64,000 bases of DNA from Azolla caroliniana (Eukaryota; Plantae; Polypodiophyta). The stretch is from assembly GCA_043228905.1 (NCBI GenBank), contig JBHGNT010000009.1:5704001-5768000 (forward strand), in the 5' to 3' direction. This document shows positions 557 to 55,470 of the stretch, piece by piece (position 1 is the first letter of the stretch; every line of letters begins with the position of its first letter). The notes beneath the pieces are model-generated. The model worked only from the letters and a program-made list of their open reading frames with translations. It had not been told where the DNA came from and did no database searches. The translations under genes and the position numbers were made by a program.

Positions 557-1010
557 TGTTGAGAGACAAGCTCAACATCGGCCGGATCGGCTGAAGAAGC
601 CGAGGACCGGATCGGTTGGGACCGATCGGTTAGGCCGAATGCGTAAACCGGTATGCAGACCGGTGCATAGGTAGGGCCGGATCGGTGCATAAACCGGGAG
701 GCCGTTAGGAAAGATATTCCGTGAGGAGTATATTTGGGAGTTAGTATAGGAGCCCTTAATGAGCATTGAAGTACTGTCAATACTTCGGTCAGTCCTTCTA
801 GGACTTGTATAAAAGTGTTCATTGAACACACATATGTATAGAGTGTGGTGAATAGAGATTGTGTATTTTTTGAAGATACTTCTTGTGTTTTCCTCTCTCA
901 CTCTCTCTGTCTCTCCCGCGTATACTACGTGAGCTCAAGCTCTCCATTAAACCTGAGTTTTGTTCCTTCTGTTCGGTCTTCATACTTGCTTCTGCACGTT
1001 ACTTTTTATA
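557..1010 (+). repeat. 5' LTR of B1
   Basis: Starts TGTTGAGAG; direct repeat of 5331-5784; TATAAAA near 808; followed by the PBS. Confidence 0.95.
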
Positions 1011-1082
1011 TGGTATCAGAGCGCGAGGGTTGAGAACCTCTCTGCAGCCAACACAGCTTGATGAAGAAGAACAAGAAGAACG

Positions 1083-4000
1083 ATGGATAGAGGCATAGCG
1101 AGCTCGCTTCCAACAGAGAAGCTCGACAGAACCATCTACGCGTCTTGGTCCTACAAGATGCACCAGTACCTGCTCGGGCACGGGTACTGGAGTTATGTCG
1201 AAGGAGCTAATGACGCGGCACCCGAATCCACATATAGAGACTTCCCGTCGTGGGAGCAATCGGCGAGCAGGGTATTATACTGCTTCGCGTCGTGTGTGGG
1301 CGAACAACTATTGAGCTATGTTCGGGATGCAAAGACGCCGAAGGGTGTGTGGAAAAATCTGAAGAAGATTTTCGCCGCGAGCACCACAACCAGGAAGCTT
1401 CAGCTCCGACAGGAGTTGAGCAACCTACGACAACGCGACTTGTCGGTGGCGGACTATACCTCGAAGATCAAGGATATCTGCGACTCCGTCGCCTCCATAG
1501 ATGTGAACATTGAGGAGAGCGAGATGGTCCAGATCTGTCTCGGAGGTTTGGCGTCGAAGTTCGGAGCGTTTCGAATGGCTGTGTGTACCCGGGAGAAAAC
1601 GTCGTCCTTTTTCGACTTACAGTCAATGCTCCTAGTAGAGGAGAACCACGCGGGTGCGTCTACAAGCACGCACACCGACAACAGAATGTTGTACACGGAG
1701 GGAGATAGGCCCCGTGGACTTGGAGGACGAGGCGAGTTGGCGCGCAATGGAAGCGGCTGACGAGACCAAGGAAGAAGGCACCGAAGTGATGCCGACAGCA
1801 ACTCCGGACCCTCTGGAAACAGGGGGAGTCGAAGCGATGAGAACCGGCAAGGGAAGGCCATCGCGGAGTGCTGGTACTATGGCAAGAAAGGCCACAGGGA
1901 AAGTGAGTGCTGGAAGAAGTGCGCCGATTCAGAGAAAACCGGTTCCGGAAACGGCTCCGGACATACCGACAAGAGAAATCGGCAGCGATCGCACTACGCC
2001 GAAGACTCCAGGAGAGTCGGAGAAGGGTTTGCCTTCGTGACGAGACACGAAGCAAACTCAATGAAACGGACCACCCCGACATCGGACGAGGTGTGGTACG
2101 TAGACTCCGGTGCGTCAAACCACATGACGAGCCATAAGGAGTGGTTCTCGTACCTTGAAAAACCGATATAACCTGAAGTAGTCGCAACTGGAGACGACAC
2201 TCCACATCCGATCGCGAATGTCGGAGAAGTTCCCCTTAGCCATGTCGGGCAGAAAAGGAAACTCATTAACGTGCTGGACGTTCCGACAATCACGAAGAAC
2301 TTGGTCTCAGTCGGACACATCGTCGACGAAGGGATGGAGGTTCGGTTTACACACCTCGGGTGCTTCATTGAGGAAGAAGGCCGTGGGATTGCGCAAGGGC
2401 GCAGAGACGGGAGGATGTTCATCCTCGATTCCACTGATGGAGGCACCGCAATGTTCGCGAAGGGACAAAAATCCGAGTCGGACATCGACTTGTGGCACAA
2501 GCGGATAGGCAATGTCAACTACCAACGGCTTCAAGATTTGCAATCGAAATAGGTAGTGTTCGGATTGCCCAAATTTAGTGGCCGAAAGGCACAAATTTGT
2601 GAAGCCTGCCAGCTCGGGAAGCAACACTGACTTCCTTTCCCCAACGAGCGAAACCGGAGCCGGAACAAGCTCGACCTTATACACTCCGATGTATGGGGGC
2701 CATCACAAAACGTTAGTCTTGGCGGGAGCCGATATTTCGTCTCCTTCATCGACGACCACACGCGGCACACATGGATCTACCTCATTGAGAGGAAGAGCAA
2801 AGTCTTCGACTGTTTCTGGGACCTCAAAGGGTTCGTGGAAGCGGAAACGGGACGAAAGATCAAGTGCCTGCGGTCGGATGGCAGGAAAGAGTACTTTTCC
2901 GGTCAATTCAACGGTTACCTACAACAAATGGGAATTCGCCGCGAATTTAGTTGTAGATACACGCCAGAGCAGAACGGCGTGGCCGAGAGAAAGAATTGGT
3001 CGATTGTGGAAGCGGCACGGGCAATGCTGGAGGAGAAGAGCTTGCCCAAGTTCTACTGGGCCGAGGCGGTAAGGACCGCGGTATACATCCAAAACCGGAT
3101 CGGAGCCAAAGTGTCGGCGCACGAGCTATATTTCGGAACGAAGCCGAACTTGCGATACTTGAGGGTGTTCGGTAGCATTGCGTATGTGCATGTACCGAAG
3201 GAGAAAAGGAGGAAGCTGGACGCAAAGGCCGAGAAATGCATATTGGTCGGTTACTCGGACGAGCAGAAGGGTTATAAGTGCTATAACCCTCGCAGCAAAC
3301 AAGCGTGTGTCAGCCGCGACGTTGTGTTTGACGAGTCCGCGTCCTGGTACCTGCCCCCGACTACGAACCTCAACTCCAATCCGAGCTCTGACGATGAGGT
3401 CAGCGAGGCCGAGATGCCTCCGAATGAGCCCGAAATCGAGACCCGCGAAGAGAGTCCGATTTCACTCCGGTTAAGTGGACCAATTGGACGACTAAGTCGG
3501 TACGACTAGTCCGATGAAGAGCCGGCGAGTAGTGGAGACTCGGCCGTGCATTTCCCGTGCAGGAAGCCGAGGAGACGGCTTACGCGCAAAGAGAAAGGAA
3601 AGAAGAAGGTGTCAGATTCCGGCACGGATAGGAATGAGTCAGACCGACGCGAGTCTGACTCTGAGGGAACCGGTGACGGGTCTTTAAAGGTGAAGACCGC
3701 GTCGACCGAGAAGGCCTCGACATTGGCTAATATGAGATTACGCCGATCTACCCGCCAGAAGAATCCTGTTTTGCGGTTCGGATACAACGAGTACATGGTG
3801 CACCATTATGCATACATGACCCGTGTAGCGGAAGTGCGTGAGCCGGAGTGCTACGCAGAAGCAGCTAAAGACGCGAATTGGCGTGCCGCGATGGAGGAAG
3901 AGATGCACGCATTGGCGGAGAACGGGACCTGGGACCTGGTTGACGCACCAACAGGGGTAAAACCGATCGGGTGTAGGTGGGTGTACAAGGTCAAGTACAA

Positions 4001-5330
4001 CATCGATGGCTCGGTCAACCGGTGCAAGGCTCGGCTAGTGGCAAAGGGCTACGCGCAAAAACATGACATTGACTACGATGAGACTTTTGCGCCAGTCGCG
4101 AAAATGACGACCGTCCATGTTTTGCTCGCAGTAGCTGCGGTGAAGGGGTGGCAGTTACATCAGATGGATGTAAAGAATGCGTTCTTGCAAGGTGACCTTG
4201 AGGAACAGGTGTACATGGTACAACCCCCCGGATTTCACTCCGGAACGAACTCCTCGGCAGTATGCCGATTGAAGAAGTCCCTTTACGAACTGAAGCAAGC
4301 CCCGCGTGCCTGGAACACGAAGATCACGCAACAACTGTGTCAGATGGGCTTCGTCACGTCAAAATCAGACTCTTCCCTGTTCATCCGGAAAGGTCAACTC
4401 GGACCGGTTAGTATTTTACTATATGTTGATGACTTGGTCATCACCGGCGCTGACCTAGGTGAAATCGACCGCGTGAAACTCCAGCTTGCGGCATCGTTCG
4501 ACATGAAGGATCTGAGGGACCTTCATTACTTCCTCGGGATCGAAGTGATCCGTACCCCGGAAGGCATATTAATCAGCCAATGTCATTACGTGCTGAGTAT
4601 GCTCTTCAAATTCAGGATGGCCGACTGTAAATCCGTCTCGACTCCTGTAGACAAAACCGTCAAGCTTCGTCCCGATACGGGAAAGGTATGCGACCCGACG
4701 AGGTTCCGACAAATTGTCGGAAGACTCATATACTTGACCATCACCCGACCCGACCTCAATTATCCGGTCGGGGTGATCAGTCAGTTCATGGCGCGACCTA
4801 CCGAGGAGCACCTTCAGTGTGCGCAACGCATACTTCGGTATGTCAACGGCACTAAGGACCGGGGACTGCTATATCGGACCGGTGCAGTCGCGTAGTTAGT
4901 CGGCTACACCGATGCTGATTGGGCTAGCAACGCCGCCGATCGCCGATCCACGTCCAGATACGCGTTCTCCCTCGAGAGTGCCACGATCGCGTGGAGCAGT
5001 AAGAAGCAGCCGACAGTTGCACTGTCGAGCACCGAAGCCAACTCGGACGAGAGCGAAAACCAATAGGAGGTAGCCGAGTCGGTTCGGATGTTTGATTCAG
5101 ATACGCTGAATCAACCGAGGCCTAAGCGGAAGAAAAGGCAGCAGAAGAAGCGTCAACACCGCAACAATAGAAGAGCTGATAAGGGCCACATGAGTAGACA
5201 AGCCGACTGGAAGGGTCGAAGCGCGCGGAGTCGAACATGTCATGGAGCGTAAAAGAGGCGTGAAGCCAGGAGGAACTGGAGCTGTGAGCCCGAAGATCCC
5301 GAAGAGCCTCAAGTTGAGCTTGAGGGGGAG
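1083..5330 (+). pseudogene. pol: Copia gag-PR-INT-RT polyprotein with multiple stops
   Basis: gag ORF 1083-1760; protease WYVDSGASNHMT near 2095; integrase ORF 2835-3509 (PEQNGVAE); RT ORF 3546-4895 ([13 protein letters not shown]). About 570 bp of RNase H is missing at ~5039 relative to 19024-19596. Confidence 0.93.
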
Positions 5331-5784
5331 TGTTGAGAGACAAGCTCAACATCGGCCGGATCGGCTGAAGAAGCTGAGGACCAGATCGGTTGGGACCGAT
5401 CGGTTAGGCTGAATGCGTAAACCGGTATGCAGACCGGTGCGTAGATAGGGCCGGATCGGTGCGTAAACCGGGAGGCCGTTAGGAAAGATATTCCGTGAGG
5501 AGTATATTTGGGAGTTAGTGTAGGAGCCCTTAATGAGCATTGAAGTACTGTTAGTACTTCGGTCATTCCTTCTAGGACTTGTATAAAAGTGTTCATTGAA
5601 CACACATATGTATAGAGTGTGGTGAATAGAGATTGTGTATTTTCTAAAGATAATTCTTGTGTTTTACTCTCTCACTCTCTCTGTCTCTCCCGCGTATACT
5701 ACGTGAGGTCAAGCTCTCCATTAAACCTGAGTTTTGTTCCTTCTGTTCGGTCTTCATACTTGCTTCCACACGTTACTTTTTACA
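5331..5784 (+). repeat. 3' LTR of B1
   Basis: Follows the PPT; ends TACA followed by TSD AGAAA. Confidence 0.95.
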
Positions 5785-6173
5785 AGAAAGATATAGAAAT
5801 CTCGTGAATCACACGAGTATAGTTTATTAATTGGTGGTTTAGGAAATATATCCAATTTCCCAAATATTTTTTACACAACCTTACATTGTGCTCCCCATCC
5901 TTATGTAGTGATGAGGGAGTCTTAGCAATCCATGCTTTTTCTTCTCTAACTATAGACTCCATGCTTTTCCTATAGAGAGACTATATGTTTTATCTAAAGT
6001 GATCATGCTTTTTCTAACTCGTGCGTTCTTTTATAAACTATAGCGTTCATACACGCTAGAGGTGCATGCATGGTTTTTTTTCTTTTAGCATGCGTTTTCT
6101 TTTAACTAAAGTTGATCCTAGATGAACTTAGCTTTCTATGTGGGAAACCTATTTTTTAACACTAATGAAATGC

Positions 6174-6238
6174 TAGTGTAATGGTAAGACATTACATTAT
6201 TAACATGGAGGCGCAAGGTTCGAATCTTGCCCTATGCA
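6174..6238 (+). promoter_or_regulatory. tRNA-like Pol III type-2 cassette in LTR A
   Basis: A-box TAGTGTAATGG at 6174; B-box GGTTCGAATC at 6217 inside a GCAAG/CTTGC stem; T-run downstream. Confidence 0.65.
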
Positions 6239-6334
6239 TGTATTATTTATTTTGATATTTTCTTCTATTTCTTCATATTTACTAAAACGTTACTTTATAA
6301 GTTTTTCATGTAGTGTACGAAATACACTACAACA

Positions 6335-9300
6335 CCGTCATTTGCGGAAAGACAAGGGAACCGATAATACCAATTCGAAGAATTCACCACACTGAAACGG
6401 TTCGGATCGGCGAGGACCGGACCGGAAGGGAACAACGGCAATCGCAGCCAGTGAAGAGGAGTTGATGCTCATCACCGGGGAGAGTGAGTTAAACCTTGCC
6501 GGTGACGAGACAACGTGGGTTGTCGAATCCGGAACGTCGTTCCACCAGACCCTGGACCGGAAATGCTTCTCATTCTACACAGCCGGTGAGCAGGGCTGTG
6601 TCCGGATGGGGAATGAAGGTACATGCCGAATTGTCGGCATAGGAGACGTGTGGTTGACAATACCAACCTGATGCCAGTTGGTGCGGAAGGATGTCGACAC
6701 GTTCCGGAGGTTCGACTGAACCTGATATCAGCCGGTATGCTAGATGATGAAGGTTGCACAGGTAGCATCTGGAACGGTGTCATGAAGTTCAGCAAAGGGA
6801 GTCTAATAGTGGCTCGGGCCCAGAAAGTCAACACACTGTACCTACTGAATGCCCGGTTATGCCGGGAAAAAGTGAATGTTGCATCCGACACTACCGGTGA
6901 GCTGTGGCACAAGAGACTATGTCACATGAGCGAGAAGGGGATGAAGAGGCTTGCCGATGACAACCTCATTCCGGTGAAAGACGTGCATCTTGAGAAGTGC
7001 ACTGATTACCTGGCCGGTAAGCAAAACCGGACCTCCTTCCACTCAAGGTCACCGATGAGACGTAATGCACCACTGGAGCTGGTGCATACCGATGTATGTC
7101 AAGTGGACATGAAGTCACATGTTGGATTGCAGTACTTCGTGAAATTCATAGACGACCACAGTCGGAAGCTGTGGGCCACACCGTTGAAGACGAAGGATCA
7201 AGTGTTATCCGTCTTCAAGGAGCTCCACGCAAGAGTGGAAAGAGAAACCGGTCAGAAGTTGAAGGCGGTTCGAGCAGATAACGAAGACGAATACCGGGGC
7301 CAGTTTGAGGAGTACTGCCACTTGAAGGGCCTCCGGCTCGAATTTACCGTGCCGAAGATGCCGAAACTAAACGGGTTGGCCGAGAGGATGAACCGGACCA
7401 TAATGAAGAGGGTCCGGAGTATGCTAGCACATGCAAGGTTACCCAAGATGTTTTGGGCTGAGGCACTAGCGACAACGACATACGTGATAAACAGATCACC
7501 CTCAGTGCCCTTGGACGAAGACACGCCGTAGAGAATGTGGACCGACAAGGAAGTGTCTTACCGGCATCTGTAGGTGTTCGGGTGTCTTGCTTACGTGCAT
7601 GTTGCAAAGGACCGGAGAGAAAAGTTGGATCCAAAGTCCCGGCCTTGCATATTCCTCGGATACGACGATGATGAGTTCGGCTACCGAGTGTGGGATCCAG
7701 TTGACAAGAAGGTTTTCTGGAGTTGAGATATTATCTTCATGGAGGACAAGACCCGTGCCGACTGGGAGTCGGAGAAGAAGATAATGAACTCCGATTCGAC
7801 CGGTAAGGATCGGTTCGATGAGATTCGGACCTACCCGGCTAAGAGCCGGTTGACACTCGAAGAACCGGCCGGTTACGGTGAGGATACCAAAGCGGTAGAA
7901 GAAGAAGAAGAGGAAGCTGGAACCGGAACCGGCCATGATCCCGAATCGGAATCGGATGAAGAACAGACATAGGAGCCGGTTACCGAAAACCGAAGTCGGA
8001 GATATCCTCTCAAAGAAGGAAGGGGCCCCCAGAGATTTCTGGATGCAGAGCGCGTGTTGCTAACCGATGAGGGGGAGCCGAAAAGCTTTGAAGAAGCAAA
8101 GGAGGACACCCACAGCCGCAAGTGGTCGAGTGCCATGCAAGACGAGATGGATTCCCTACATGAGAACCACACGTATGAACTGGTGGAGTTGCCGAAAGGA
8201 AAGCGGGCACTCCGGAATAAGTGGGTGTACAAGCTGAAACCCCCCGAGATACAAAGCCAGGATCGTGGTGAAGGGGTTCCAGCAGAAGAAGGGCGTGGAC
8301 TTCGACGAGATATTTGCCCCGGTAGTAAATATGACTTCCATCCGGACGGTGCCGAGCATAGCGGCAAGCACGAACCTCGAGGTAGAGCAGTTAGATGTGA
8401 AGACAACATTCCTCCACGGTGACCTCGAAGAGGAGATCTACATACAGAAATCGGGGGGATTTGTGAAGAAAGGGAAGGAGCACCTGGTTTGCCGGTTGAA
8501 GAAGAGCCTCTATGGTTTGAAGCAGGCGCCTCGGCAATGGTACCGGAAGTTTGACTCCTTCATGACCGATTAAGGGTACCACAAGACGCAGGCCGATCAC
8601 TGCGTATTTGTGAAGAAGTTTGAAGATGGAGACTTCTTGATACTCCTCCTGTACGTGGATGACATGTTGATCGACGGACGAGACCAAGTCAAGATATGGA
8701 TGCTGAAGAAGGCCCTGAACCGGACCTTCTCAATGAAAGACTTGGGTCCGGCAAGACAGATACTGGGGATGCATATCATCTGGGACCGGTCAATGAAGCA
8801 ATTGTGGTTGTCACAGGAAAAGTACATGACAAAGGTGTTTCAGTGGTTCAACATGTCAGACGCGAAACCGGTTGGATCAATACTTCCGGCAAACTGCAAG
8901 CTATCCGGTAAGCAAAGCCCAAAGACGAAGGCAAAGAAGGCGGATATGATGAAGATGCCATATGCCTCTGCCGTTGGGAGCTTAATGTATGCAATGGTGT
9001 GTACCCAACCGGATATCGGATACGCAGTCGGAGTGGTGAGCCGGTTTATGAGCAATCCCGACAAGGAGCACTGGAATGCGGTAAAATGGATACTCCGGTA
9101 CTTGAAAGGCACCTCAAGTATCTGTCTTCGATTCGGCTCCGGTAAACCCCAACTTGATGGTTTCACCGATTCGGATATGTCGGCTGATGTCAACATCGAG
9201 ATATGTTATGAGATATGCAGGTGGAGTTGTTTCGTGGCAGTCGAGGCTGTAGAAGACGGTTGCGTTGTCAACCACAGAAGCGGAGTACGTGGCAGCCGTG

Positions 9301-12244: not shown

Positions 12245-13995
12245 TTTTAATGCATTGCATTGAATTCTAGCTACATGGACTAAAATATGATACATTGCAT
12301 GGATTTCCCGAAAATACATAAATAAATACAAATTGAAAAAATAAAACATTTTCCCATAAATAAATAAATAAACATTTTTTATTTTACTCGTAAATAAATA
12401 AATAAAAATTGACAAATTAGATTTCAATGGAAATCCAATTCCGTGCATCGGATTCAATTGAAAATCCAATTTCTCTTATTTTTTTGAAAATTTTCTTATT
12501 TTTTGAATTGTTTTTGAATTTGTTTTTATTTTTCCCATAAAAAAATAAATAAAAATTGAAAAAATGGATTTTCAACGGAAATCCGATGCACTGCATCGGA
12601 TTTTGGTTGAAAGTCCACTTTTACGTATTTTTTTCCAAATTTGCTTTTTTTTTGAATTTTTTTGAATTTTTTTGAATTTTTTCTATAAAAAATAAATAAA
12701 TATTGAAAAAATAGATTTTCAATGGAAATCCGATGCACTGCATCGGATTTCCATAGAAAATCCACTTTTTCTTATTTTTTTCCAAATTTTCATAGTTTTT
12801 AGAATTTTTTTGGTATTTTGTTTGTCTATTTTCTCATAAATAACTATATAGAAATTGAAAAAATGAATTTTCAAAGGAAATCTGATGCATTGCATTGGAT
12901 TTCTATTGAAATTCCACTTTTTGCTATTTGTTACCAAATTTTCATATTTTAAATTTTTTTTTTGTATTTTTAAATTTTTTTTCATTTTTTCCCATAAATA
13001 AATAAATAAATATTGCAAAAAATGGGTTTTCAACAGAAATTTGATGCACTACATCGGATTTCTATTGAAAATCCATTTTGTCTTATTTGTTTCCAATTTT
13101 TCAGATATTTTGAATTTGTTTTTATATTTGTTTTGAATTGTTTTTGTTTTTATCATAAATAAATATATAGGAATTGAAAAAAATGGATTTTTAACGGAAA
13201 TCCGATGCACTGCATCGAATTTCCATTGAAAATCCACTTTTTCTTGTTTGTTTACAAATTTTCTTATTTGTTTATATTTTTCTCTAAAAAAGTGTTAAAA
13301 ATAAACAAATTGTGATTTTCTCCATTTAAAATGATGCACTGCATCGGATTCCCGTTGAAAACAGATCATTTTCAACAGGATTTTCAATGGAAATCCGATG
13401 CACTGCATCGGATTTCCGTTGAAAGTCCAATATTTTTCTTATGTTTTTTCATAAAACATTAATTTTCAATTGAAATCTGACTCAATGGTTCAGATTTTAT
13501 TGAAAATGTAATATTTTTTTATTATCTCATTGTTTTATGAAAAACCTAAAAGAAATTTGGATTTTTAATTGAAATTCGATGTAGTGCATTAGATTTCAGT
13601 TGGAAATCCACTTTTTTAATATATTTTTAATTGAAAAGAAGGAGGATTGCCAGCTAAAATCTGATGCAATGCATCAATGTCTAGCTGTATAGACTACGAT
13701 CTAATGTAGTGTATCGGATTTCAGTTGAAAAGCCGTTTATTATTTTTTTATATGGAAAATAAATAAATAAATAACATTGGAAAAAGAAAAAAGAAAAATG
13801 GATTTTCAACTCTAATCCAACGCATTGCATTAGATTCTAGCTATATATACTAAAATATAATGTAGTGCATAGTATTTTAGCTGAAAATCCATTTTTTATT
13901 TTTTAATGGAAATTTTTTTAAATATTACAAAAAAAAAAACTTGGATTTTCAATTGAAATCTAGTGCATCGCATTGGATTCCAATTAAAAATCCAA
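12245..13995. repeat. Array of about 15 imperfect ~50-bp palindromes (TGGATTTTCAAcGGAAATCCGATGCAcTGCATCGGATTTCCgTTGAAAATCCA) with A/T-rich spacers
   Basis: Copies start at about 12416, 12564, 12712, 12864, 13023, 13184, 13378, 13558 and 13942, plus partial copies. Confidence 0.9.
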
Positions 13996-14339
13996 GATTT
14001 TTTATTTTTTCAAATTTTCAATGGGTTTTAGATTAGTTTTCTGACACAGGTATATAATATAAAACTTACATCAATTTAGATTAACGTTATATTCTATTCT
14101 TCAGTTTGATGTTACCTGTGCAATTTCATTCTACTGTCATGTACTACTAAAACATACGCCTTAAAGATTATAAGGAACTCTGTTGCATTAGAGAAGGACC
14201 TTGAGCAAGTTAATGTCATCAAAATGAGGATCCAAGGTATCTGGGGTTGTCCTGATCAAGACCAAGAAGTTGGGGCAAAGCATATGAATAAAACTTAGAT
14301 GTTCCAGATGACTTTAAATAGAAAACTTGTCTGATTATT

Positions 14340-27857: not shown

Positions 27858-29022
27858 TGTCGTGAAGATCCATCACTATGCGTGGATCGTGAGGCGGAAC
27901 CGCCAGGGTTCTGGATCGGAAGGACTTGAAGTTGGCGCAAGCTTTAGCGAGAAAGTACTTAAGCTAGATTGAAAGAGAGAGATTAAGATTGAACTCTTGA
28001 TTTTAGATTTTAAGAAACAAGTTACACGATCAATTCGATAACAAATTCTCTTCTTCTTAATTTCATAACAAAAAAAAAGCCTAACCCTTCTTCTTTCTCA
28101 TCCCTCCTTTTATAGATGCTCTCATGCATATGATGCATGTGTGGGTACAAGACATGCATAAAATGCATGTTTGCCATTTGGCGCTCATGCATTACATGTG
28201 GTGCATTATAACCATGTCACTCATTTTAGCTCTCATGTATGAGAATTTCCATGTAAAAATCCATGATAGAAATATAAATTTAACTAAATGTCATGGCTTA
28301 GTGGTAAGCTTACAGACTCTTAACTAGGAGGTGCAAGGTTCGAATCCTCACTTGCCCTCCTTGTGTATATATATGTGATATATATTTATTTATTAATTTT
28401 GTCGTCGGATGCCACCGCCGTCGCTAGCTCGTCAGATGCCGGTACCGTTGGATCACCGGCTCCGTCGGATGCCGATTCCGTCGGGTCACCAGCTCCGCCG
28501 CCGCCTCGCCGGCTCCGTCAGATGCCGATACCGCCGGATCACCGGCTCCGTCGGATGCCGGTTCCACCGGGTCACCGGTTGCCGGTGTGCCACCGTCGCT
28601 TTGCCGGCTGCCGTCGGATCACTGGATCACTGGCTCTATCGCCGGTCCGGTTTTGGTTGGCCAAAACCTTTACGAGTGGCTAGGCCACCTCCACTCTTAG
28701 TGCAAGTTACCTTGAACTCTCTATGTTCAACACATAGACAAAAAGATAATAGTTTTTTCTCTACCTTATATATGATGAGAGTCGTATTTGTCGTGCCTAT
28801 GTGTGATATCTCACAGTTTTCTCTTTTCCTTTCACAAACTTTATACCCTTATATCTTGACATCTAGTTGTCTGTTTCTCGTGTAATAAAGTGCATTCAAA
28901 AGCTCTTGAAGACCTCCATCATTTTGTACTTAGATACTTCACTATTATTGTTTTATATAATTCATACTCGAATTTGTACGTTTTATGTGATTTTCACACC
29001 ATTGCCGAAAATCTTCACAACA
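27858..29022 (-). repeat. 5' LTR of D (1165 bp)
   Basis: Terminal inverted repeat; minus-strand TATA at ~28107-28113; GC-rich minisatellite at 28400-28680. Confidence 0.88.
28294..28357 (+). promoter_or_regulatory. tRNA-like Pol III cassette in LTR D
   Basis: A-box TGGCTTAGTGG at 28294; Lys-like loop CTCTTAA; B-box GGTTCGAATCC at 28337. Confidence 0.7.
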
Positions 29023-37749: not shown

Positions 37750-37884
37750 TGTCGGGGTAGTTGTGGTTCGTGTGGCGAAGTCGCGGGGACTAAGGTTAAG
37801 GGGAGTTGAAGGAACTTAAGTTTAATAAGGCTTGTATGGTGATGATAGAATGGTTAAGGATAGTAAGATGAAGAGTTACAAGTA

Positions 37885-37942
<58 letters not shown>

Positions 37943-38103
37943 CGAGCATAGATAAAAGATAGAGACAATGTATGATTCACGAAAGAAGATTGAGACAAAG
38001 TATGATTCAAAGAACAAGAGTATATGATATAAACATGATGTATATTAAAAATATAATATTTTACCAACTTTACAATCCTTGATCGCAAGATGAATCTTTT
38101 CAA

Positions 38104-38169
38104 TACCGACCCTGGATTTGAACCCTCGACCTCAACTTCGAAACGAGAGGTTCTCCACCCAATGAGCTA
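38104..38169 (-). promoter_or_regulatory. tRNA-like cassette, sense orientation, LTR E (copy at ~44633-44698)
   Basis: Minus strand reads TAGCTCATTGG ... GAGGGTTCAAATCC. Confidence 0.6.
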
Positions 38170-38426
38170 GTCTTCTTCAATTGATTGTATTATTTTTTTA
38201 CTCTCTCTTGATTCCTTGATTCCCTTTTGTTTTCCTTTCCTCTCTTTTTATAAGTATTTCCATGCATATGGTAATGTCATGCATGTAATGCATGAGTTAC
38301 ATCTGATGCATGATCGCCATTTGGCGCACATGCATTGCATGTGATGCATGATAGCCATCATGCTCATTTGAGCTCCCATGTATTGGGATAAGTATAATGA
38401 TGGATATAACCCTAAAACAAATAACC

Positions 38427-38619
38427 TAGCTTAGTGGTGTATGGTTTATGCTTGATATACAAGGTTGAGGGTTCAAGTCCCTCAATTTTACTTAATACAA
38501 TATATAGCTTCATTCTTATATCATGAAGCACATTTATTATACACTTTTACAAATAAATAGCCTAGCCTAGTGGTGTGTACATTGTACATCGTATATAAGG
38601 ATGTGGGTTCAAGTCTCTC
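38427..38619 (+). promoter_or_regulatory. Two tRNA-like A/B-box cassettes in LTR E (copies at 44956 and 45092)
   Basis: TAGCTTAGTGG 38427 with GAGGG-TTCAAGT-CCCTC (B-box 38470); TAGCCTAGTGG 38563 with GGTTCAAGTC 38606. Confidence 0.7.
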
Positions 38620-38673
38620 AAATATTATTAAATACAACATTTAAGCTCATTTTTATATCGTGAAGCACATTCT

Positions 38674-41600
38674 TCACGACACCCACCCCCTCTGAACTTG
38701 CACATTGGTTGTGCAGAGTTCATCCAACACTTCTTCCGATTCTTTTAGTTCTTCTACTTCTTCATAAAATTCAGGCTCTAATGACTCCCTCCTTTTAAAT
38801 ATTTTAATCCTTTTTCCTGCAATTGGGATACGAATTTCTGTCCCATCTAATTCATTGAGGAAATATGTGGCTTTATCTGTTATTTTCCTAACTTCATAAG
38901 GTCCAAACCATCTTTTTGCAAACTTCCGAATAGTACTGTATTGATTATCTAGGCTATTATCATATACTAATACCCAATCTCCCTCTTGCACCTTTCTTGG
39001 TCGTATTCTTTTCATCTTGTCAAATCTGTCCTTATTCTTGATTCTTGCCTCTTTCAATCTAGTAGCTGCTTTTTCTATGTCTTCTATCCTTGATTGAAGT
39101 TGTCGTATTCGAACCGCAAGTAAATCTTCCCTACTCATTTCTGATTCCCAAGGCAACACAGCCCATGTAGTTATCTTTTCTTCAATTGGCATTATTGGCT
39201 TCTGTCCTGTGATTAATTCTGCAGGCATATATCCAGTAACAGTGCTGTGAGTTGTCCTATTAGCCCATAGTGCATAGGGTAAGGTTTTTGGCCAATCACT
39301 AACCCGTCCTCTACATGCCTTTGCCAAAGCTTTGACTATTGGCCCATGTCCCCTTTCTACCTTTCCATTAGCTTCTGGATTGTACGCCGTTGTCAAAGAA
39401 AGCCAAATTCCTATTTTGTCGAAAAAATCTTGAGCTTCCGCAGAATTGAGTTCTCCCCTATCTGCCACTATCTTCCCGATACATCCATATCTACAAACAA
39501 TGTCCTCCAAGATGAATTGACATACTCCTAATGTCCCTTTTGTTCTCAATGAACGACCTTCCACTTGATTTGTTAGATCTTCTCTAGCAAGAACCAAGTA
39601 TCTCTTTTGTCCGACTCCAAGTGGCATTGTTACCAAATCTATCATCCACTTGTAATGCACCCCCGGTGAGTATGTTGGGTGTAATTCATCACAAAATTTT
39701 ACATTTGAATAATATTGACAAGTGGGACAAGTTTCCACATACTTTTTTATTTGCTCATAGTATCGAGGCCACCAAAATCGTTCTTTAATCTTACTGAAAG
39801 TGGCCCACACTCCTCGATGACCAGCCCATTCTTTGTCATGCAACTCTTTGATTATCTCCTTTCTTTGCCCTTCAGAACCTATTACTCTTTGCGGGTTTCC
39901 AGTCTTGGTTTTCGGATGTCGCCATAGATATCCTTCATACAGGAAGAACTTATGGGCTTTCTTGCGAAACTGTGCGAACTCTTTTCCAGATCGACCTTTG
40001 TACTTGTTAGGGGTTTGTAGGTATTTCCCTATTTCCTTGAATTCATCTTCATACTCCTCTTCTAGAAACTGCATTCCTCCTTCCCGAGTAATGCTTGTGG
40101 TAAGGACTGTTTGTTCTTTGTCCTCATCGTCCGAGTCTGGAATCTCCTCTTCCTCATACCTTGCTCTTGATAACATATCTGCTACTGCATTTCTATTCCC
40201 AGAGATATGTCGAACTTCAGGGTTGATTGATCTAATATAGATACACCATCTTAACATGGCTTGATCTGGAATATCACAATTAGCTATGATACCCAGAATA
40301 GGCAAACAATCTGTTTCTATTATTACTTCAGCACCAATTAAGTAATCTCTGTCTATCTTTACAGCTGTTACTATCCCCCATAGGTCTCTTTTCACCTGTG
40401 CATATTTTCTTTGTCGACCACTAAGAACCTTTGCCCCGAATCGGACTGGATACCTTTCTTCCCTATCTTGTTGGCTTATCACCCATCCAATTCCAATGGG
40501 ACTAGAGTCTACTGTGAGATATATGGGCCGGGTGTAGTCTGGTTGCTTTAATGGTGGAGCTTGTGCCAAGTAGTACTTCAATTTCTTCATTGCCTCTGAA
40601 TGCTCTTCACTCCATTCAAATGTCTCTCCTTTTCTTAGGAGTCTATATAAAGGTTCAGATAAATGGGCATAATGCGGAATCCATTTACAGTAAAAAACAC
40701 ATACCCCCAGAAACCTTCGTACTTCTGAGATGGATGTACATTCCTCTTGCATATTTTGAATTGCATTGACCTTGGTTGGGGATGGCTTTCTCCCATACGG
40801 GCCACACATATGACCAACTATTAATATCTCTTTTGCCCCAAATATTGACTTCGCCCCTGATAAGGTCAAATGCACTTCTTCCATCCTTGATAGCACCTTC
40901 TCACAATCCTTGATATGATCAGCAACGAATTGACGGCAACCACTTTCGTCCAATTCCTCGTTCTTCTCTTCCTCCTTGCATCCCTTAATTGGAACATCAT
41001 CTAGAAAAGGCATTGTAATATGAGGAATAAAATCACGAAGTACCTTGTTCATTCCATTCATCATATGCGCCACTGAGTTGGTCGCTCCTTGCGGCAAGGT
41101 GCACATCCGTACTAACCCTATAGGTGTCTTGATAGAAGTTATATCTCGACTTTTGATAGCAAGTTGAAATTGATCATATCCGGAATAAAGGTCTCCCATT
41201 GAATATATAGCTCTTCCTGCAAACATCTCAGCAAACTCATCCACAATTGGTCCTACTCCCGAGTTTCGGATTGTTACCTTATTCACGGGTTGCATATCTT
41301 GGATAAATCGGAGTCGCCCATCTTTCTTTAACACAGTGAACCATCGACTCGAGTAAGGAGCGTTCGATGGTTCCAAGATACCCATCCTTATCTTTTCTTT
41401 CAAAAGTTCTAATAGTTGAGGGATTCTAGCCCTAGGCATGGGTATTGGCTTAAAGTTCCATGGAATATGAGGGATAGTGAATATAACCATGGGCTCCACA
41501 ATTTCTGGATCCACACACCCTATTTCTTCCGGTTGGAATGCGAACGCCTTTCCATGCCTTTTTAACATCTCCCTGAACTGCTTTTCTTCAGCGGGTAATA

Positions 41601-41925
41601 GGAAGTCACCCCCTCCTATTTTCATCCCTTGTATTGTTTCCGGAGTAAACACATGTCCTACCTTTCGTGGGTCTCTGATCATTGGCTCTGTGGCTGCTTC
41701 TTTGATTGCCTTTTCACTATCCCCTGGAAGTGGAGCAGCAATAGGACGAACCTTCTTCTCCACTGTCTTGTATTTTGTTAGTACATGTGCTTCATGATCC
41801 TTTCGAGCAACTTCTTCAATGACCTCATACATCTTGATTGAATGGACAGGAACTTGGATTTCGTTGTCTTCTTCCATTGCTTCCAAATGAGTTATTGTAT
41901 CTTCAAAACTTAATTCTTCAAACAT
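38674..41925 (-). CDS. pol: Gypsy Pol (RT-RNase H-integrase); frame open upstream to the slippery site at ~42138
   Basis: PQGATNS, FLDD, VDSS..TDC..ADMLSR, H-x6-H..CxxC, DDE integrase, GPY; no chromodomain. Confidence 0.95.
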   Translation of the reverse strand: MFEELSFEDTITHLEAMEEDNEIQVPVHSIKMYEVIEEVARKDHEAHVLTKYKTVEKKVRPIAAPLPGDSEKAIKEAATEPMIRDPRKVGHVFTPETIQGMKIGGGDFLLPAEEKQFREMLKRHGKAFAFQPEEIGCVDPEIVEPMVIFTIPHIPWNFKPIPMPRARIPQLLELLKEKIRMGILEPSNAPYSSRWFTVLKKDGRLRFIQDMQPVNKVTIRNSGVGPIVDEFAEMFAGRAIYSMGDLYSGYDQFQLAIKSRDITSIKTPIGLVRMCTLPQGATNSVAHMMNGMNKVLRDFIPHITMPFLDDVPIKGCKEEEKNEELDESGCRQFVADHIKDCEKVLSRMEEVHLTLSGAKSIFGAKEILIVGHMCGPYGRKPSPTKVNAIQNMQEECTSISEVRRFLGVCVFYCKWIPHYAHLSEPLYRLLRKGETFEWSEEHSEAMKKLKYYLAQAPPLKQPDYTRPIYLTVDSSPIGIGWVISQQDREERYPVRFGAKVLSGRQRKYAQVKRDLWGIVTAVKIDRDYLIGAEVIIETDCLPILGIIANCDIPDQAMLRWCIYIRSINPEVRHISGNRNAVADMLSRARYEEEEIPDSDDEDKEQTVLTTSITREGGMQFLEEEYEDEFKEIGKYLQTPNKYKGRSGKEFAQFRKKAHKFFLYEGYLWRHPKTKTGNPQRVIGSEGQRKEIIKELHDKEWAGHRGVWATFSKIKERFWWPRYYEQIKKYVETCPTCQYYSNVKFCDELHPTYSPGVHYKWMIDLVTMPLGVGQKRYLVLAREDLTNQVEGRSLRTKGTLGVCQFILEDIVCRYGCIGKIVADRGELNSAEAQDFFDKIGIWLSLTTAYNPEANGKVERGHGPIVKALAKACRGRVSDWPKTLPYALWANRTTHSTVTGYMPAELITGQKPIMPIEEKITTWAVLPWESEMSREDLLAVRIRQLQSRIEDIEKAATRLKEARIKNKDRFDKMKRIRPRKVQEGDWVLVYDNSLDNQYSTIRKFAKRWFGPYEVRKITDKATYFLNELDGTEIRIPIAGKRIKIFKRRESLEPEFYEEVEELKESEEVLDELCTTNVQVQRGWVS

Positions 41926-42074
41926 ATCCTGAATTTCTTCATCATCATCTATTAATCCAGAACACTTAAAGTACTCGAAAGCATTTTGTATTTTATTATT
42001 ATTTACTTTTAGTATAAAAGTAGCACCATTAGATGAGATTGTACAAGGAATATCTTTATTTACATTATTATTTA

Positions 42075-42138
42075 TGGGGTTTTCTTTTATGCTCGGGCTA
42101 TCACAGCCCCTACCTGTAAAAGCCCTATCTAAAAATCC
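42075..42138 (-). other. Predicted -1 ribosomal frameshift signal
   Basis: G GAU UUU UAG followed by a GGGCU..ACAG/CUGU..AGCCC stem; loop GGGG can pair with downstream CCCC. Confidence 0.75.
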
Positions 42139-44243
42139 TGGGAAAACTCTTCATCCATCTCTTGAATTGGATGTTCCCTCAAGCATTCTTTGTTTCTTTC
42201 ATGGTTGGGCCTCACGGTTAAGAATTGGACAGTCTTTCTTCCATCTTGACTCTTGATTCTCGCGAAAGCCGAACCATCATCAATAACCTTTGTTTCCATC
42301 CTCACTGCGGTGATGTAGGGCTGGCCAAGGATGACGGGGTAGGTTGATCGATCCTGCACAAAGAAATTTTGATTCACCGAGACATCACCAATTGTTACCT
42401 TCACACTAGGACATGCTCCGAATAGATCCTCCGTAGTTTCTGTGGCAGCTCTTATTTTCCACCCATGATTCTTGTCGATCGGCCATCGTCCTCGAGCGTA
42501 AAATTCCGATGACATCATGTTAATCTCTGATCCATGATCAATCAAAGCAATACATGGAATTTGCTGCTCCCCAATTTTTGCAGGTGCCTCCGTTGTTGCT
42601 CGAGCCCAATGGTCCCTTGTATAGTGACTCCTATCCCCTTCATGGACGCCAACATCATTCTGGTTTTTTACACTTGCAGCATTGATGGTGCCACCATACA
42701 AATCTTGGAGTGTTGTTGCACACCCTCCCGTAATTTCCTCCGTCACCTGTCTCTTCCTTCTAATAATATCTATGATAACTTCATGAAATTCTTTCTTTGC
42801 TATACCCAACACTTCTCTTAAAGTAAATTCTACCTTACTATTTAATATTCTTGTTTCTAGTACCTTTTTTATATCCGTCGTTGTTTCTATGTCTGAGGCA
42901 AGCTTGAAAGATGGGCCTGTCTTTCCTTTTACTTTATCAGCTTCCTTCGGCTCAATAGCACCCTTTTCCATCTCCCTTCTCTTTTGTTCTCGTGTCTCAT
43001 GTCTCTTTGTCGAATCAGCTTCCTCAGCTCTCTTCCGCTTCTCTTCCACTAGCACATCTTGTGCATTCACTTGGGCGAATGCTGATAGCGCGTCTACTGG
43101 ATCACTCCATCCAGTGAAGTTTCGTATTTCATCTCCCGCTCTTTTTAATTCATCCACTCGAACCTTCCCTTTTCTTGCATAATCCATCACATCTTGCCAA
43201 AAGCCAGATCCACCATATGAGTCTTCTACGCGCAATCCTAAGGTTGCCACGGATTGTATCGCTTGAGTCGTTTCTCTCTCGGCATCTTCCATTAACCTTT
43301 TCATTCCTCCTCGCCCGAAGTTGAGTTGAAGTGGTTGTCGAGTCTCAGTTGAGTGAATCTTGCCATCTTGATAGTAGATTTTATTATGATTAAGAGCATC
43401 CCTATGCTCTTGACAATCTTTCTTCTGGTGGTCGATACTATCACACCACATACACCTTCGGACCATTCCACCTCCTTGCCTTGATGAAGTCGAGCTTTGT
43501 CCCGATTCTAGCTTCGTCACTTTGATCGACAAGTCTTTCATGCCTTTCACTAATTCGTGTAAGAGTGATTCTTCTACTTTCTTTTCTCCTGACTCGTTCC
43601 CTGTTTCTTCATCATTTCTGTCGGGCAACTCCATAAACCATAACTTTCTTTTGCAGAAATGGGCGCACGCCCTTTTCACCTCCTCCCAATCTTCGGTAAG
43701 TCCACTTGGACTATTCTGATCTTCTAAAAGCATTCCCAAGTCCTTCCTGTCTTTAATATTAGTAGCTTGTAGAAACAATATTACTTTATCTGGCACTATT
43801 ATATTTCTATCTCTAACATTTAGTTGCTCAAATCTTTCAGAAAACTCTTTTAATACTTCCAAAACACTTAAATGTTTATTAGACTCTACCCAATCCATGA
43901 AAGCTCGCCCTGTCATCCTTGACATATCGTTGAGGTTGTATTCATTGAGTAATGCCCTTTCGAATGTTGTCCATGTCTGATTCTCCCTTTGGAGCTCTTG
44001 GATCTTCTCTTGTAGCCCAATCGCAGCGACTCGACTAAAGCTATTAATTTTTGTAGCTTCGTCGACACCGCGTTTAAGCATTTCTTCATTATAAATCTTC
44101 AAAAATCTTGTTAAATTTATACCTTCGAAGATTCCTACTCGTGCGAGAATATTGTCGACGGCTTTGTCGATGCTTGCCATCATCCCTTGTTCCCGCATCA
44201 CTCGTTCCATCATCGTACACATAAGCCTCATTTGCTCCTCCAT
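42129..44243 (-). CDS. gag: Gypsy Gag-protease
   Basis: 704 aa; CMWCDSIDHQKKDC knuckle; ALIDHGSEIN and ILGQPY protease motifs. Confidence 0.93.
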   Translation of the reverse strand: MEEQMRLMCTMMERVMREQGMMASIDKAVDNILARVGIFEGINLTRFLKIYNEEMLKRGVDEATKINSFSRVAAIGLQEKIQELQRENQTWTTFERALLNEYNLNDMSRMTGRAFMDWVESNKHLSVLEVLKEFSERFEQLNVRDRNIIVPDKVILFLQATNIKDRKDLGMLLEDQNSPSGLTEDWEEVKRACAHFCKRKLWFMELPDRNDEETGNESGEKKVEESLLHELVKGMKDLSIKVTKLESGQSSTSSRQGGGMVRRCMWCDSIDHQKKDCQEHRDALNHNKIYYQDGKIHSTETRQPLQLNFGRGGMKRLMEDAERETTQAIQSVATLGLRVEDSYGGSGFWQDVMDYARKGKVRVDELKRAGDEIRNFTGWSDPVDALSAFAQVNAQDVLVEEKRKRAEEADSTKRHETREQKRREMEKGAIEPKEADKVKGKTGPSFKLASDIETTTDIKKVLETRILNSKVEFTLREVLGIAKKEFHEVIIDIIRRKRQVTEEITGGCATTLQDLYGGTINAASVKNQNDVGVHEGDRSHYTRDHWARATTEAPAKIGEQQIPCIALIDHGSEINMMSSEFYARGRWPIDKNHGWKIRAATETTEDLFGACPSVKVTIGDVSVNQNFFVQDRSTYPVILGQPYITAVRMETKVIDDGSAFARIKSQDGRKTVQFLTVRPNHERNKECLREHPIQEMDEEFSQDF

Positions 44244-44282
44244 TTCTCCTCGTCGCCGCCTTCACGTCGGGTTCACCAAATG

Positions 44283-44417
44283 TGTCGGGGTAGTTGTGGT
44301 TCGTGCGGCGAAGTCGCGGGGACTAAGGTTAAGGGGAGTTGAAGAAACTTAAGTTTAATAAGGCTTGTATGGTGATGATAGAATGGTTAAGGATAGTAAG
44401 ATGAAGAGTTACAAGTA

Positions 44418-44471
<54 letters not shown>

Positions 44472-45210
44472 CGAGCATAGATAAAAGATAGAGACAATGT
44501 ATGATTCAAGAAAGAAGATTGAGACAAAGTATGATTCAAAGAACAAGAGTATATGATATAAACATGATGTATATTAAAAATATAATATTTTACCAACTTT
44601 CCAATCCTTGATCGCAAGATGAATCTTTTCAATACCGACCCTTGATTTGAACCCTCGACCTCAACTTCGAAACGAGAGGTTCTCCACCCAATGAGCTAGT
44701 CTTCTTCAATTGATTGTATTATTTTTTTACTCTCTCTTGATTCCTTGATTCCCTTTTGTTTTCCTTTCCTCTCTTTTTATAAGTATTTCCATGCATATGG
44801 TAATGTCATGCATGTAATGCATGAGTTACATCTGATGCATGATCGCCATTTGGCGCACATGCATTGCATGTGATGCATGATAGCCATCATGCTCATTTGA
44901 GCTCCCATGTATTGGGATAAGTATAATGATGGATATAACCCTAAAACAAATAACCTAGCTTAGTGGTGTATGGTTTGTGCTTGATATACAAGGTTGAGGG
45001 TTCAAGTCCCTCAATTTTACTTAATACAATATATAGCTTCATTTTTATATCATGAAGCACATTTATTATAGACTTTTACAAATAAATAGCCTAGCCTAGT
45101 GGTATGCACATTGTACATCGTATATAAGGATGTGGGTTCAAGTCTCTCAAATATTATTAAATACAACATTTAAGCTCATTTTTATATCGTGAAGCACATT
45201 CTTCACGACA
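44283..45210 (-). repeat. 5' LTR of E
   Basis: Adjacent to the Trp PBS. Confidence 0.96.
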
Positions 45211-53714: not shown

Positions 53715-54770
53715 TGGTACACCGCAACATGCTCTGATCCATATGTGAGCGGCACGAAGGATCAGGGACTGTTATATCGACACGGTATAGCTGAGAAGCT
53801 ACTCGGATATACGGATGTCGACTGGACCGGTGATGATCGCAAATCCACCTCTGGTTACATGTTCTCTATTGGTAGCGCGGTTGTTGCGTGGAGCAGCAAA
53901 ATGTAGCCAACAGTGGCTCTATCGAGCACTGAGGCTGAATACCAGGGCGCTACCATTGCCACCTGTGAAGCCATCTAGCTTTGGCAACTGTTGCGAGACC
54001 TCCGGATCGAGGTGCCGACCTCGATCCTGATCTACTGCGACAATGTAACCAGCATATAGTTCGCCAAGATCCCTATAATCCATGCTCGGACAAAGCACAT
54101 AGAAGTGCATTATCACTTTGTCCGTGAGTGGGTCCTGAGTGGTGAAGTTGAACTTCGGTATGTTCACACGGATCGGCAGGTTGCCGACATCTTCACCAAT
54201 CCACTCGGATCGAACAAGTTGTAGCACTTTTCAGAGATGATCAGCATTCAGCATCTCGACGTGCCGCACTTGAGGGGGAGAACGGGAATCGAAATGGGTA
54301 ATGGCACCAAACAAGGAGCCAGAGAGAAAGAGGAACGAACCAAGACAGGGGGAGATAAGAAGAAAAAGGAAGTTGAGTCGACCGGAAAAGTCGACATATC
54401 CAAGCAAGTCGGAACAAGCAGCGGTGGCGGCAAAGTAAAAAAGGACAGAGCCGACCAGAAGGAGAAGGCCAAGATGGTCCGATGTGGTGATAGTCTTGAG
54501 AACAGAAGATGAGTTGGAGACTACCAACTCGGACAAGAGCTGGAATGAGTCAGAGACAGCCGATTCGATTCAACAATTGGATTCAGATGATCCGGATCAA
54601 GTAGAGGTCAAGAGGACGATAAGGTAGCGGAAGTCGACGCCAATACGAAGGAACTGGTTGATCGACAAGTGCCGAAATCATGATAACGAGGAAGCTGAGA
54701 AGGGCCTATTGTGCAGACATGTCGACCAAGAAGGTCGAGGAGCACAAAACTGGATGGGTCATGGAAGGAA
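53715..54770 (+). pseudogene. Copia B-related RT end, RNase H and tail relic
   Basis: GYTDVDW..RKSTSGY, STEAEY, HIEVHYHF; tail homologous to 19340-19800. Confidence 0.85.
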
Positions 54771-54774
54771 GATT

Positions 54775-55470
54775 GTAAATAGCTTTTACCTTCTCTCCCT
54801 CTTTCTCTATTATGATATCTCTTACAATATAATTCCGCTCAATTCCATACAATATTTCTATTCAATATGATTGATTGATTCCTTGATATCTGTGTGACTA
54901 TACTCCCTTCTCCTTTTACAGGAAGGGGATGGTTTTGCATGTGGGCCATATGTCACACATGCAAAGAGGGCTTTTGCATATGTGCTATATGGTGCACATG
55001 TAGTATATTACATGGTTTAGACTATACAATGCTACTTCAAATAAAGCAACACATTTTCTTTTATACATATAACTGGTTAAGTGGTAGGCTTTGAGGTTCA
55101 TAATGTGGAGGTTGTTGTTTCAAGTCTTGTCTTGCCCATGTAATACAATATATGGTGCACATGTACCACATTATATGGTTTAGGATTTAAACCATACAAT
55201 ATTACTTCAAATAAAACAAGACATATAGTTTTATACATACTATAGTTATAGGGTAAATTGTAAGTTTTCAAAGTCATAAGGTGGGAGTTATTGGTTCAAG
55301 TCCTCTCTTGTCAATGTAATATAATATTTATTTTTTTTATTTGCCTCTACATAGAATGTATAATATTATCATAGTGTGTTTTTTAATATTACCTTTATAA
55401 AACATTATCAAGATATATTGTATTTATCTTTTTGTGGACTTTTAATGTGAAGCTTTCGTACTTCATGACA
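54775..55470 (-). repeat. Partial LTR H of the Trp-Gypsy group with two tRNA-like units
   Basis: Terminus CTTCATGACA at 55470; A/B-like boxes at 55074/55117 and 55250/55293; same layout as LTRs D and E. Confidence 0.6.

Follow-up and report, generated by a model that had tools for sequence, protein, structure and literature searches.

Conserved antisense A/B-box units in the LTRs of two Ty3/gypsy retrotransposon lineages of Azolla caroliniana, candidate Pol III promoters with a proposed role in cis

Several LTRs in a 64,000-nucleotide stretch of Azolla caroliniana DNA (the window) contain paired A and B boxes of the kind found inside tRNA genes, which raises the question of whether these pairs are tRNA genes, stranded pieces of tRNA genes or SINEs, or a promoter unit kept for a use of its own. 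A two-strand scan of the 64-kb window detected seven near-exact A/B-box pairs with an A-to-B distance of 43 nt, at positions 6174, 28294, 38427, 38563, 44956, 45092 and 55074, while block shuffles of the window gave 0.27, and the same scan found 45-nt sense units on the minus strand at 38169 and 44698. The boxes listed in an earlier note on this DNA are thus all present, and near-exact pairs stand at the 43-nt distance it described throughout, the exception being the poor A box at 55250. On the plus strand, and antisense to their elements, lie the units of LTR A (6174..6226), of the 5' LTR of element D (28294..28346, in an LTR spanning 27858-29022) and of LTR H (55074..55126, with one mismatch in the B box, in an LTR at about 54720-55470), the last accompanied by a second, decayed unit derived from a tandem duplication (55250..55302), in which the B box is good and the A box poor. 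LTR A is the U3 half (5788-6335) of one Phygy 5' LTR, the other half of which (364-556, adjoined by a Trp PBS at 348-360) is separated from it by an inserted Copia element (557-5782). LTRs F and G, correctly described before as lacking the unit, gave best matches with 5 and 4 mismatches, compared with 4-6 in shuffled LTRs, and zero units were found in four further LTR stretches of the window that are not Phygy, three being Copia-like.

Judged by cloverleaf stems and by ARAGORN or Rfam calls, the units are not tRNA genes: ARAGORN made zero tRNA calls within the window, and the Rfam tRNA model scored one unit, unit 1 in the 5' LTR of element E, at 21.2 bits, below the 29-bit cut-off. The idea that 43 nt is a special, fixed spacing did not hold up, as it is simply the ordinary tRNA linker; the A-to-B distance is 43, 44 and 45 nt in 9, 20 and 9 of 40 host tRNA genes, respectively, the units of a second carrier lineage described below are mostly spaced at 44 nt, and 32 bp is the commonest linker between the boxes in yeast (PMC11724288). 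Elsewhere in the window (12400-14100), we observed a tandem array with repeat units of about 150 bp and a hairpin in each, giving weak Rfam miRNA matches below the cut-off.

Element E, a young coding Phygy-type Ty3/gypsy retrotransposon on the minus strand (37750..45210; LTR pair 98.0% identical), shows the arrangement most fully. It was inserted near the end of the 3' LTR of element F with the target site duplication GCGC, and on the minus strand it carries a Gag-like ORF1 with a DUF4100 domain match (42129..44261), an ORF2 with domain matches to RT, RNase H and integrase (38674..42150), in which a chromodomain was sought and gave no match, a polypurine tract (38682..38698) and a PBS (44261..44278) complementary at 18/18 positions to tRNA-Trp(CCA), the target of this match being the 3' end of the genomic tRNA-Trp(CCA) plus CCA. 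The label Trp-primed, given to the group beforehand, is therefore apt for E, while LTR H has no PBS in the window and was placed in the family by 78% identity to a PBS-bearing LTR. LTR comparison and the box scan delimit a 3' LTR (37750..38681, minus strand) and a 5' LTR (44283..45210, minus strand), each with two 43-nt antisense units on the plus strand: in the U3 of the 3' LTR, unit 1 (38427..38479) has 0 mismatches to both box motifs and unit 2 (38563..38615) has a B box ending some 65 nt short of the LTR 5' end; their counterparts in the 5' LTR lie at 44956..45008 and 45092..45144. Sequence comparison identified a 136-bp tandem duplication (38415..38671) as the source of both units. The motif that is likely to be the Pol II promoter, a TATA motif recognized as a motif only (38245..38252, minus strand), is separated from the units by a cluster of 8 RY (CATGCA) motifs (38261..38350), and downstream of it both LTRs contain, as had been reported, a sense A/B-box unit with 45-nt spacing (38115..38169 and 44644..44698, minus strand), which was also found in two other E-family LTRs. 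In two basal Phygy families (observed in E, at L163 and at L143) the TATA motif is followed by a sense unit, which leaves the promoter between two outward-facing units. The U3 piece of E gave 986 candidate matches, the best 40 at 98-100% identity.

The units are abundant far beyond the window. The 523-Mb genome contains 4,811 exact 43-nt A/B pairs (control pattern, 1) and, with a slightly looser A box, 3,408 pairs at 44 nt (control, 10), while ten spacings above 45 nt combined gave 395, many of them Leu/Ser tRNA genes; the genome-wide counts covered 43, 44 and these ten. When all spacings from 25 to 79 were tried in 40 PBS-anchored 10-kb loci, only 43 (10 cases) and 44 (1 case) appeared. We examined 101 exact 43-nt matches, all located in the initial 17 Mb of contig C1, and 93 of them are antisense units in LTRs (72 Phygy and 21 chromovirus), the remaining eight being three tRNA genes, two H-type LTRs, two GC-rich non-LTR units and one unassigned match. 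Every assigned exact match (93/93) is thus antisense to its element, which bears out the orientation first seen in the window, and sense units are extras in two families only. An origin as scattered tRNA-derived SINE insertions, which the earlier note had named as an outcome that would refute its reading, was rejected: no free SINE copy of the LTR units was found outside LTRs among the 101 matches, although TSDs inside old LTRs could be lost; the two GC-rich units are unrelated, and one match is unassigned. The GC-rich tRNA-like unit found outside LTRs (L066 and L067) has a CCA-type loop and possibly represents a SINE family.

A metagenome search returned 19 loci, 18 of them with an A box within 2 mismatches, and these were rejected as evidence from distant species, being 74-98% like families of this genome; IMG/VR gave no relative, and comparison of an LTR with two contig sets guessed to be RNA gave 3 and 0 short pieces. 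The genome also holds tandem arrays of tRNA-Trp, tRNA-Lys and Leu-type tRNA genes (G000:C8:17.80 Mb, C16:5.0 Mb, C5:17.99 Mb and C7:17.26 Mb), and LTR ends before tRNA-Lys genes, considered as landing sites, proved to be the shared upstream region of a tandem array.

Two different lineages carry the units. The Trp-primed elements have NCGN target sites in 27 of 28 5' flanks (GCGC for E), a preference that marks the Phygy clade (PMC6317226), and they are short, filled by a polyprotein and devoid of a chromodomain; by these features we assign them to Phygy, within the non-chromovirus Ty3/gypsy elements. Close RT relatives of Phygy (P0023-P0120) were found in Riccia, a liverwort, and Adiantum, a fern; PMC6317226 gives a range of mosses, to which neither plant belongs. 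The elements of the second lineage have a PF00385 chromodomain at the integrase end (4/4 scanned) and no tRNA PBS; in 5 of 6 of them a 12-13 nt complement of the PBS lies 32-33 nt after the TATA motif, which places their unit in U3, and the whole fits Tcn1-type, self-primed chromoviruses, an assignment from features alone. Both carriers agree with what is described for these clades, NCGN sites in short non-chromovirus elements for Phygy and a chromodomain without a tRNA PBS for Tcn1 (PMC6317226, PMC2864245). The self-priming complement was seen in chromovirus LTRs at five loci (L148, L149, L123, L098 and L115); for the Selaginella Tcn1 element such a complement could not be found, according to PMC2864245. 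Tandem 354-bp repeats of chromodomain, PPT and chromovirus LTR tip also occur (L068 and L198-L200; G000:C1:3016847-3017573).

To sample the chromoviruses without regard to the boxes, 30 LTRs were chosen by PPT and terminus alone, and 26 of them contain an antisense unit within 3 mismatches, against a null of 1/300; three of the four unit-less LTRs are truncated, with the B box retained. Four chromovirus representatives were assigned by eye from termini and flanks. The Trp PBS pattern has 5,977 matches genome-wide, and in box-blind picks a unit lies upstream of the PBS at 4 of the first 30 sites and at 8 of 48 sites in 40 larger loci. Compared with the 26/30 chromovirus LTRs, the latter figure is at odds with the earlier view of the units as a trait of the Trp-primed lineage as such. 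Compared for signs of a common origin, units of the two lineages have a position-anchored identity of 0.27 (shuffle, 0.26), and their gapped scores have a mean slightly above the null, with a best-pair p of 0.10.

The distribution among Phygy elements appears to be the outcome of loss. In an RT-RNase H tree rooted with the Riccia and fern relatives, built by a quick method with SH-aLRT support only and without L094, L110, L176 and a partial G row (L110 and L176 being foreign nested RTs), the 12 unit-less rows form one clade (support 100) nested inside five unit-bearing sub-lineages, which share 65-77% RT identity; the starred branches force two changes. The simplest reading of this tree is that the unit was ancestral among the sampled Phygy sub-lineages and was lost once, in the commonest clade. 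Element G groups with the unit-bearing D in the first tree, yet has no unit, and may represent a second loss. LTR pairs up to 100% identical indicate that the commonest, unit-less clade is active. The RY motif, which we take to be a B3/ABI3 site, occurs 2-8 times per unit-bearing LTR and 0-1 times in most unit-less LTRs; where a Phygy LTR has a unit, the RY clusters sit between it and the TATA motif, and the unit-less clade has hardly any, which suggests that loss of the unit went with a wider replacement of U3. Unit-bearing elements also have shorter derivatives of 2.5-4 kb, among them young non-autonomous Phygy derivatives whose LTRs bear the unit and are up to 100% identical (L107, L126, L192 and L118).

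Since successful LTRs copy whatever they contain, the units might be passengers, old tRNA or SINE pieces multiplied with their carriers, a reading that would accommodate both the unit-less state of the commonest Phygy clade and the free decay of inserted copies. The pattern of conservation speaks against it. In seven representatives from the box-blind chromovirus sample, identity is 0.79 in box columns and 0.44 in the others (p 1e-7 over columns, which are not independent), a result that supports the conservation of boxes against flanks proposed at the outset. Identity at the boxes of Phygy units is inflated, as these were mostly found through the boxes, but positions 44-47, which lie outside all search patterns, reach 0.91 vs 0.40 in 17 Phygy representatives, and they are kept in both lineages; no part of the unit is better kept than the B box and positions 44-47. 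Inside the duplication of E, box letters differ at 1 of 22 positions and other core letters at 12 of 31 (Fisher p 0.004); in the duplication of H, the boxes were not spared (7/22 vs 8/31). Together with the lack of a free SINE with these heads among the 101 matches, these observations largely refute the passenger reading, which we regard as very unlikely. The claim that the boxes are under apparent selection and are inherited with the LTR is sustained by the box-specific conservation, the E duplication and the five sub-lineages. Selection does not appear to extend to every copy. CpG decay in the B box led to the tolerated form TTCAA in 19 of 33 representatives and to a damaging T at position 56 in 3 of 33, counts from a scan that favours intact boxes; TTCAA is present in 46 of 101 exact matches (about 2,200 genome-wide), as against 1,444 copies with T at 56. 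Because CpG decay in chromovirus copies is equal in the B-box region and pol (0.22 and 0.22; 2 sites, 16 copies) and T at 56 is so frequent, most copies seem not to be protected; probably, most inserted copies are silent and selection acts on a few source copies.

The conserved letters correspond to known contacts of the Pol III machinery. In yeast, TFIIIC contacts positions 44-47, where G45A causes a 5-fold change in binding, and the A box has little affinity for TFIIIC but serves as a ruler for the placement of TFIIIB (PMC11724288). The units thus have the features of a type 2 Pol III promoter, namely an A box, a B box, a linker of about 32 bp and bases 44-47, and the earlier term tDNA mimic is justified for the promoter letters and not for the tRNA fold. 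Pairing in the canonical D, anticodon and T stems is no better than with halves swapped between families, a comparison that host tRNAs pass; the perfect T-arm noted for E is real there, but canonical stems are not kept across families. Spacer identity is about 0.4, and the anticodon-like triplets vary, as first suggested by the window and now seen across families. One Phygy representative (L083) was included in the stem and spacer comparisons though unverified and was later dropped. Descent from the primer tRNA-Trp or another isotype, which we considered, was rejected, non-box identity to eight isotypes being 0.32-0.40 with none standing out.

A second explanation treats the units as Pol III genes with an antisense RNA that acts in self-regulation, as a silencing-factor decoy or as a small-RNA precursor. 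It would account for complete A and B boxes, the AT-rich DNA upstream of the units (78-84% AT) and the constantly antisense direction, and Pol III RNAs made from foamy virus LTRs provide a precedent (PMC3993851). A hairpin shifted relative to the tRNA stems, round the B box, surpasses swapped halves at p 0.001 in 17 related Phygy rows, with one double change in the A group and a fold of unit A at z -4.2; the signal weakens to p 0.10 in 14 deep rows and is absent in the chromoviruses (p 0.58). The loss of the canonical stems and the divergence of spacers and anticodon-like triplets are difficult to reconcile with a functional transcript, and so is the position of the first T4, which lies 1-930 nt away, chromovirus units running out of the LTR, so that neither length nor sequence of a product is fixed. 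The downstream T-runs once listed as a feature are at chance level (T4 within 60 nt in Phygy, 0.89 observed vs 0.81 shuffled). CAA upstream is the start motif of plant tRNA genes, and it precedes 6-7% of the units vs 45% of tRNA genes. The small-RNA option of the earlier note is weakened by this variation in sequence, stems and length, and we consider a role of the RNA unlikely, though the shifted Phygy hairpin may leave room for one.

Since no product is fixed, the act of binding or of transcribing is the likelier function. We therefore favour, giving it an even chance of being correct, the reading that antisense tRNA-derived A/B units in the U3 of two Ty3/gypsy lineages bind TFIIIC, load TFIIIB and act as a barrier or chromatin opener rather than as a source of useful RNA. 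It draws on observed features, namely where the units lie and which way they point, how many copies there are, their transmission along with the LTR, the conserved boxes and positions 44-47, the lost canonical stems and the free terminator distance, and it would involve the following steps: (i) the kept letters, a type 2 Pol III promoter, would act in cis next to the Pol II promoter; (ii) TFIIIC binding is predicted from the match to its known contact positions; (iii) TFIIIB loading is predicted from the retention of a low-affinity A box and of the spacing, a full assembly being suggested because this box, which positions TFIIIB, is kept in spite of its low affinity; (iv) given the antisense geometry, the assembly would lie towards the promoter, at a distance of 110-260 nt from the TATA motif; and (v) Pol II transcription would gain, by analogy with tDNA barriers of fission yeast. 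A barrier alone does not predict the strict antisense bias. Counting against this reading are also the activity of the clade that lost the unit and the unspared boxes of the H duplicate. The insulator option of the earlier note is plausible, but its one indirect probe, the CpG decay given above for 2 sites, revealed no protection of the unit.

Two other explanations retain binding and change its purpose. TFIIIC alone might tether or loop the element, without TFIIIB or Pol III, in the manner of the extra-TFIIIC sites described in PMC11724288 and PMC2040200, and the superior conservation of the B box and positions 44-47 is what such a role would require; however, B-box-only sites need neither an A box nor a 43-44 nt spacing, and both are kept here, which makes this rather improbable. 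Finally, the units could be landing pads for other Pol III-seeking retroelements or guides for integration of the element's own cDNA, an explanation suggested by chromovirus B boxes that end 6-53 nt from the LTR 5' end and so from the cDNA end. We find it hardly credible: none of 111 units has a break in the 120 nt that precede the A box, the 6 breaks seen lie 125-156 nt away with none at the LTR end, no unit occurs in 14 chromovirus and 28 Phygy 5' flanks, and in Phygy the distance from B box to LTR end is not fixed (65-690 nt).

The preferred reading, a TFIIIC/TFIIIB assembly acting in cis, can be set beside several known systems. The nearest described one is that of the Helenus TRIMs and TRIMp3, where, as here, tRNA-derived sequence is present in both LTRs, conservation is centred on boxes A and B and no functional tRNA is formed; those elements are non-autonomous, non-coding and 311-1,263 bp long, whereas ours code for proteins, measure 5-7.5 kb and have a TATA motif; three LTRs from the Helenus supplement have a sense unit, proposed as the promoter of the element's own RNA, in contrast to antisense units in U3 (PMC10886601). 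According to the same source, Cassandra also has a long-kept Pol III promoter inside its LTR, but of the 5S type 1 kind, in a non-autonomous element whose transcript it drives. Because our unit is antisense in U3, the role of the Cassandra and Helenus promoters, production of genomic RNA, is excluded. The tDNA barrier of S. pombe cen1 adjoins a Pol II unit, depends on TFIIIC, Pol III and the A box, and works in either orientation; it is a genuine tRNA gene with a fixed place in the host genome and has been tested, whereas the units studied here are degenerate, mobile and predicted from sequence (PMC2040200). In the Pol III miRNA cassettes of foamy viruses, A and B boxes likewise lie within an autonomous element's LTR, with a hairpin and terminator that define the product, neither of which is fixed here (PMC3993851). 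Other Repbase LTRs have tRNA-like parts, left unstudied in PMC10886601, the available text of which does not mention mosses, and the bare fact may for this reason be known to curators. Subscription papers, figures and most supplements aside, the literature (including PMC6317226, PMC2864245, PMC7466625 and PMC13570524) yielded no tRNA-like or Pol III element in Phygy or Tcn1 LTRs.

To conclude, the comparative evidence identifies a real, selected Pol III box unit in LTRs, with new geometry and carriers and of a known kind. A bolder proposal, plausible but on balance doubtful, is that the unit is a portable Pol III barrier, a module gained or swapped by two unrelated Gypsy lineages that parks TFIIIC and TFIIIB at the outer LTR edge and, at any insertion site, guards the Pol II promoter against silencing by the host. 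If true, these elements would possess a general anti-silencing or promoter-opening device assembled from host Pol III parts, at more than 8,000 sites in one genome, which could also supply chromosome folding with a large number of TFIIIC sites. With this finding, Pol III boxes in LTRs are no longer confined to tiny non-autonomous elements but include coding ones, and the natural loss clade makes the role of the unit directly testable.
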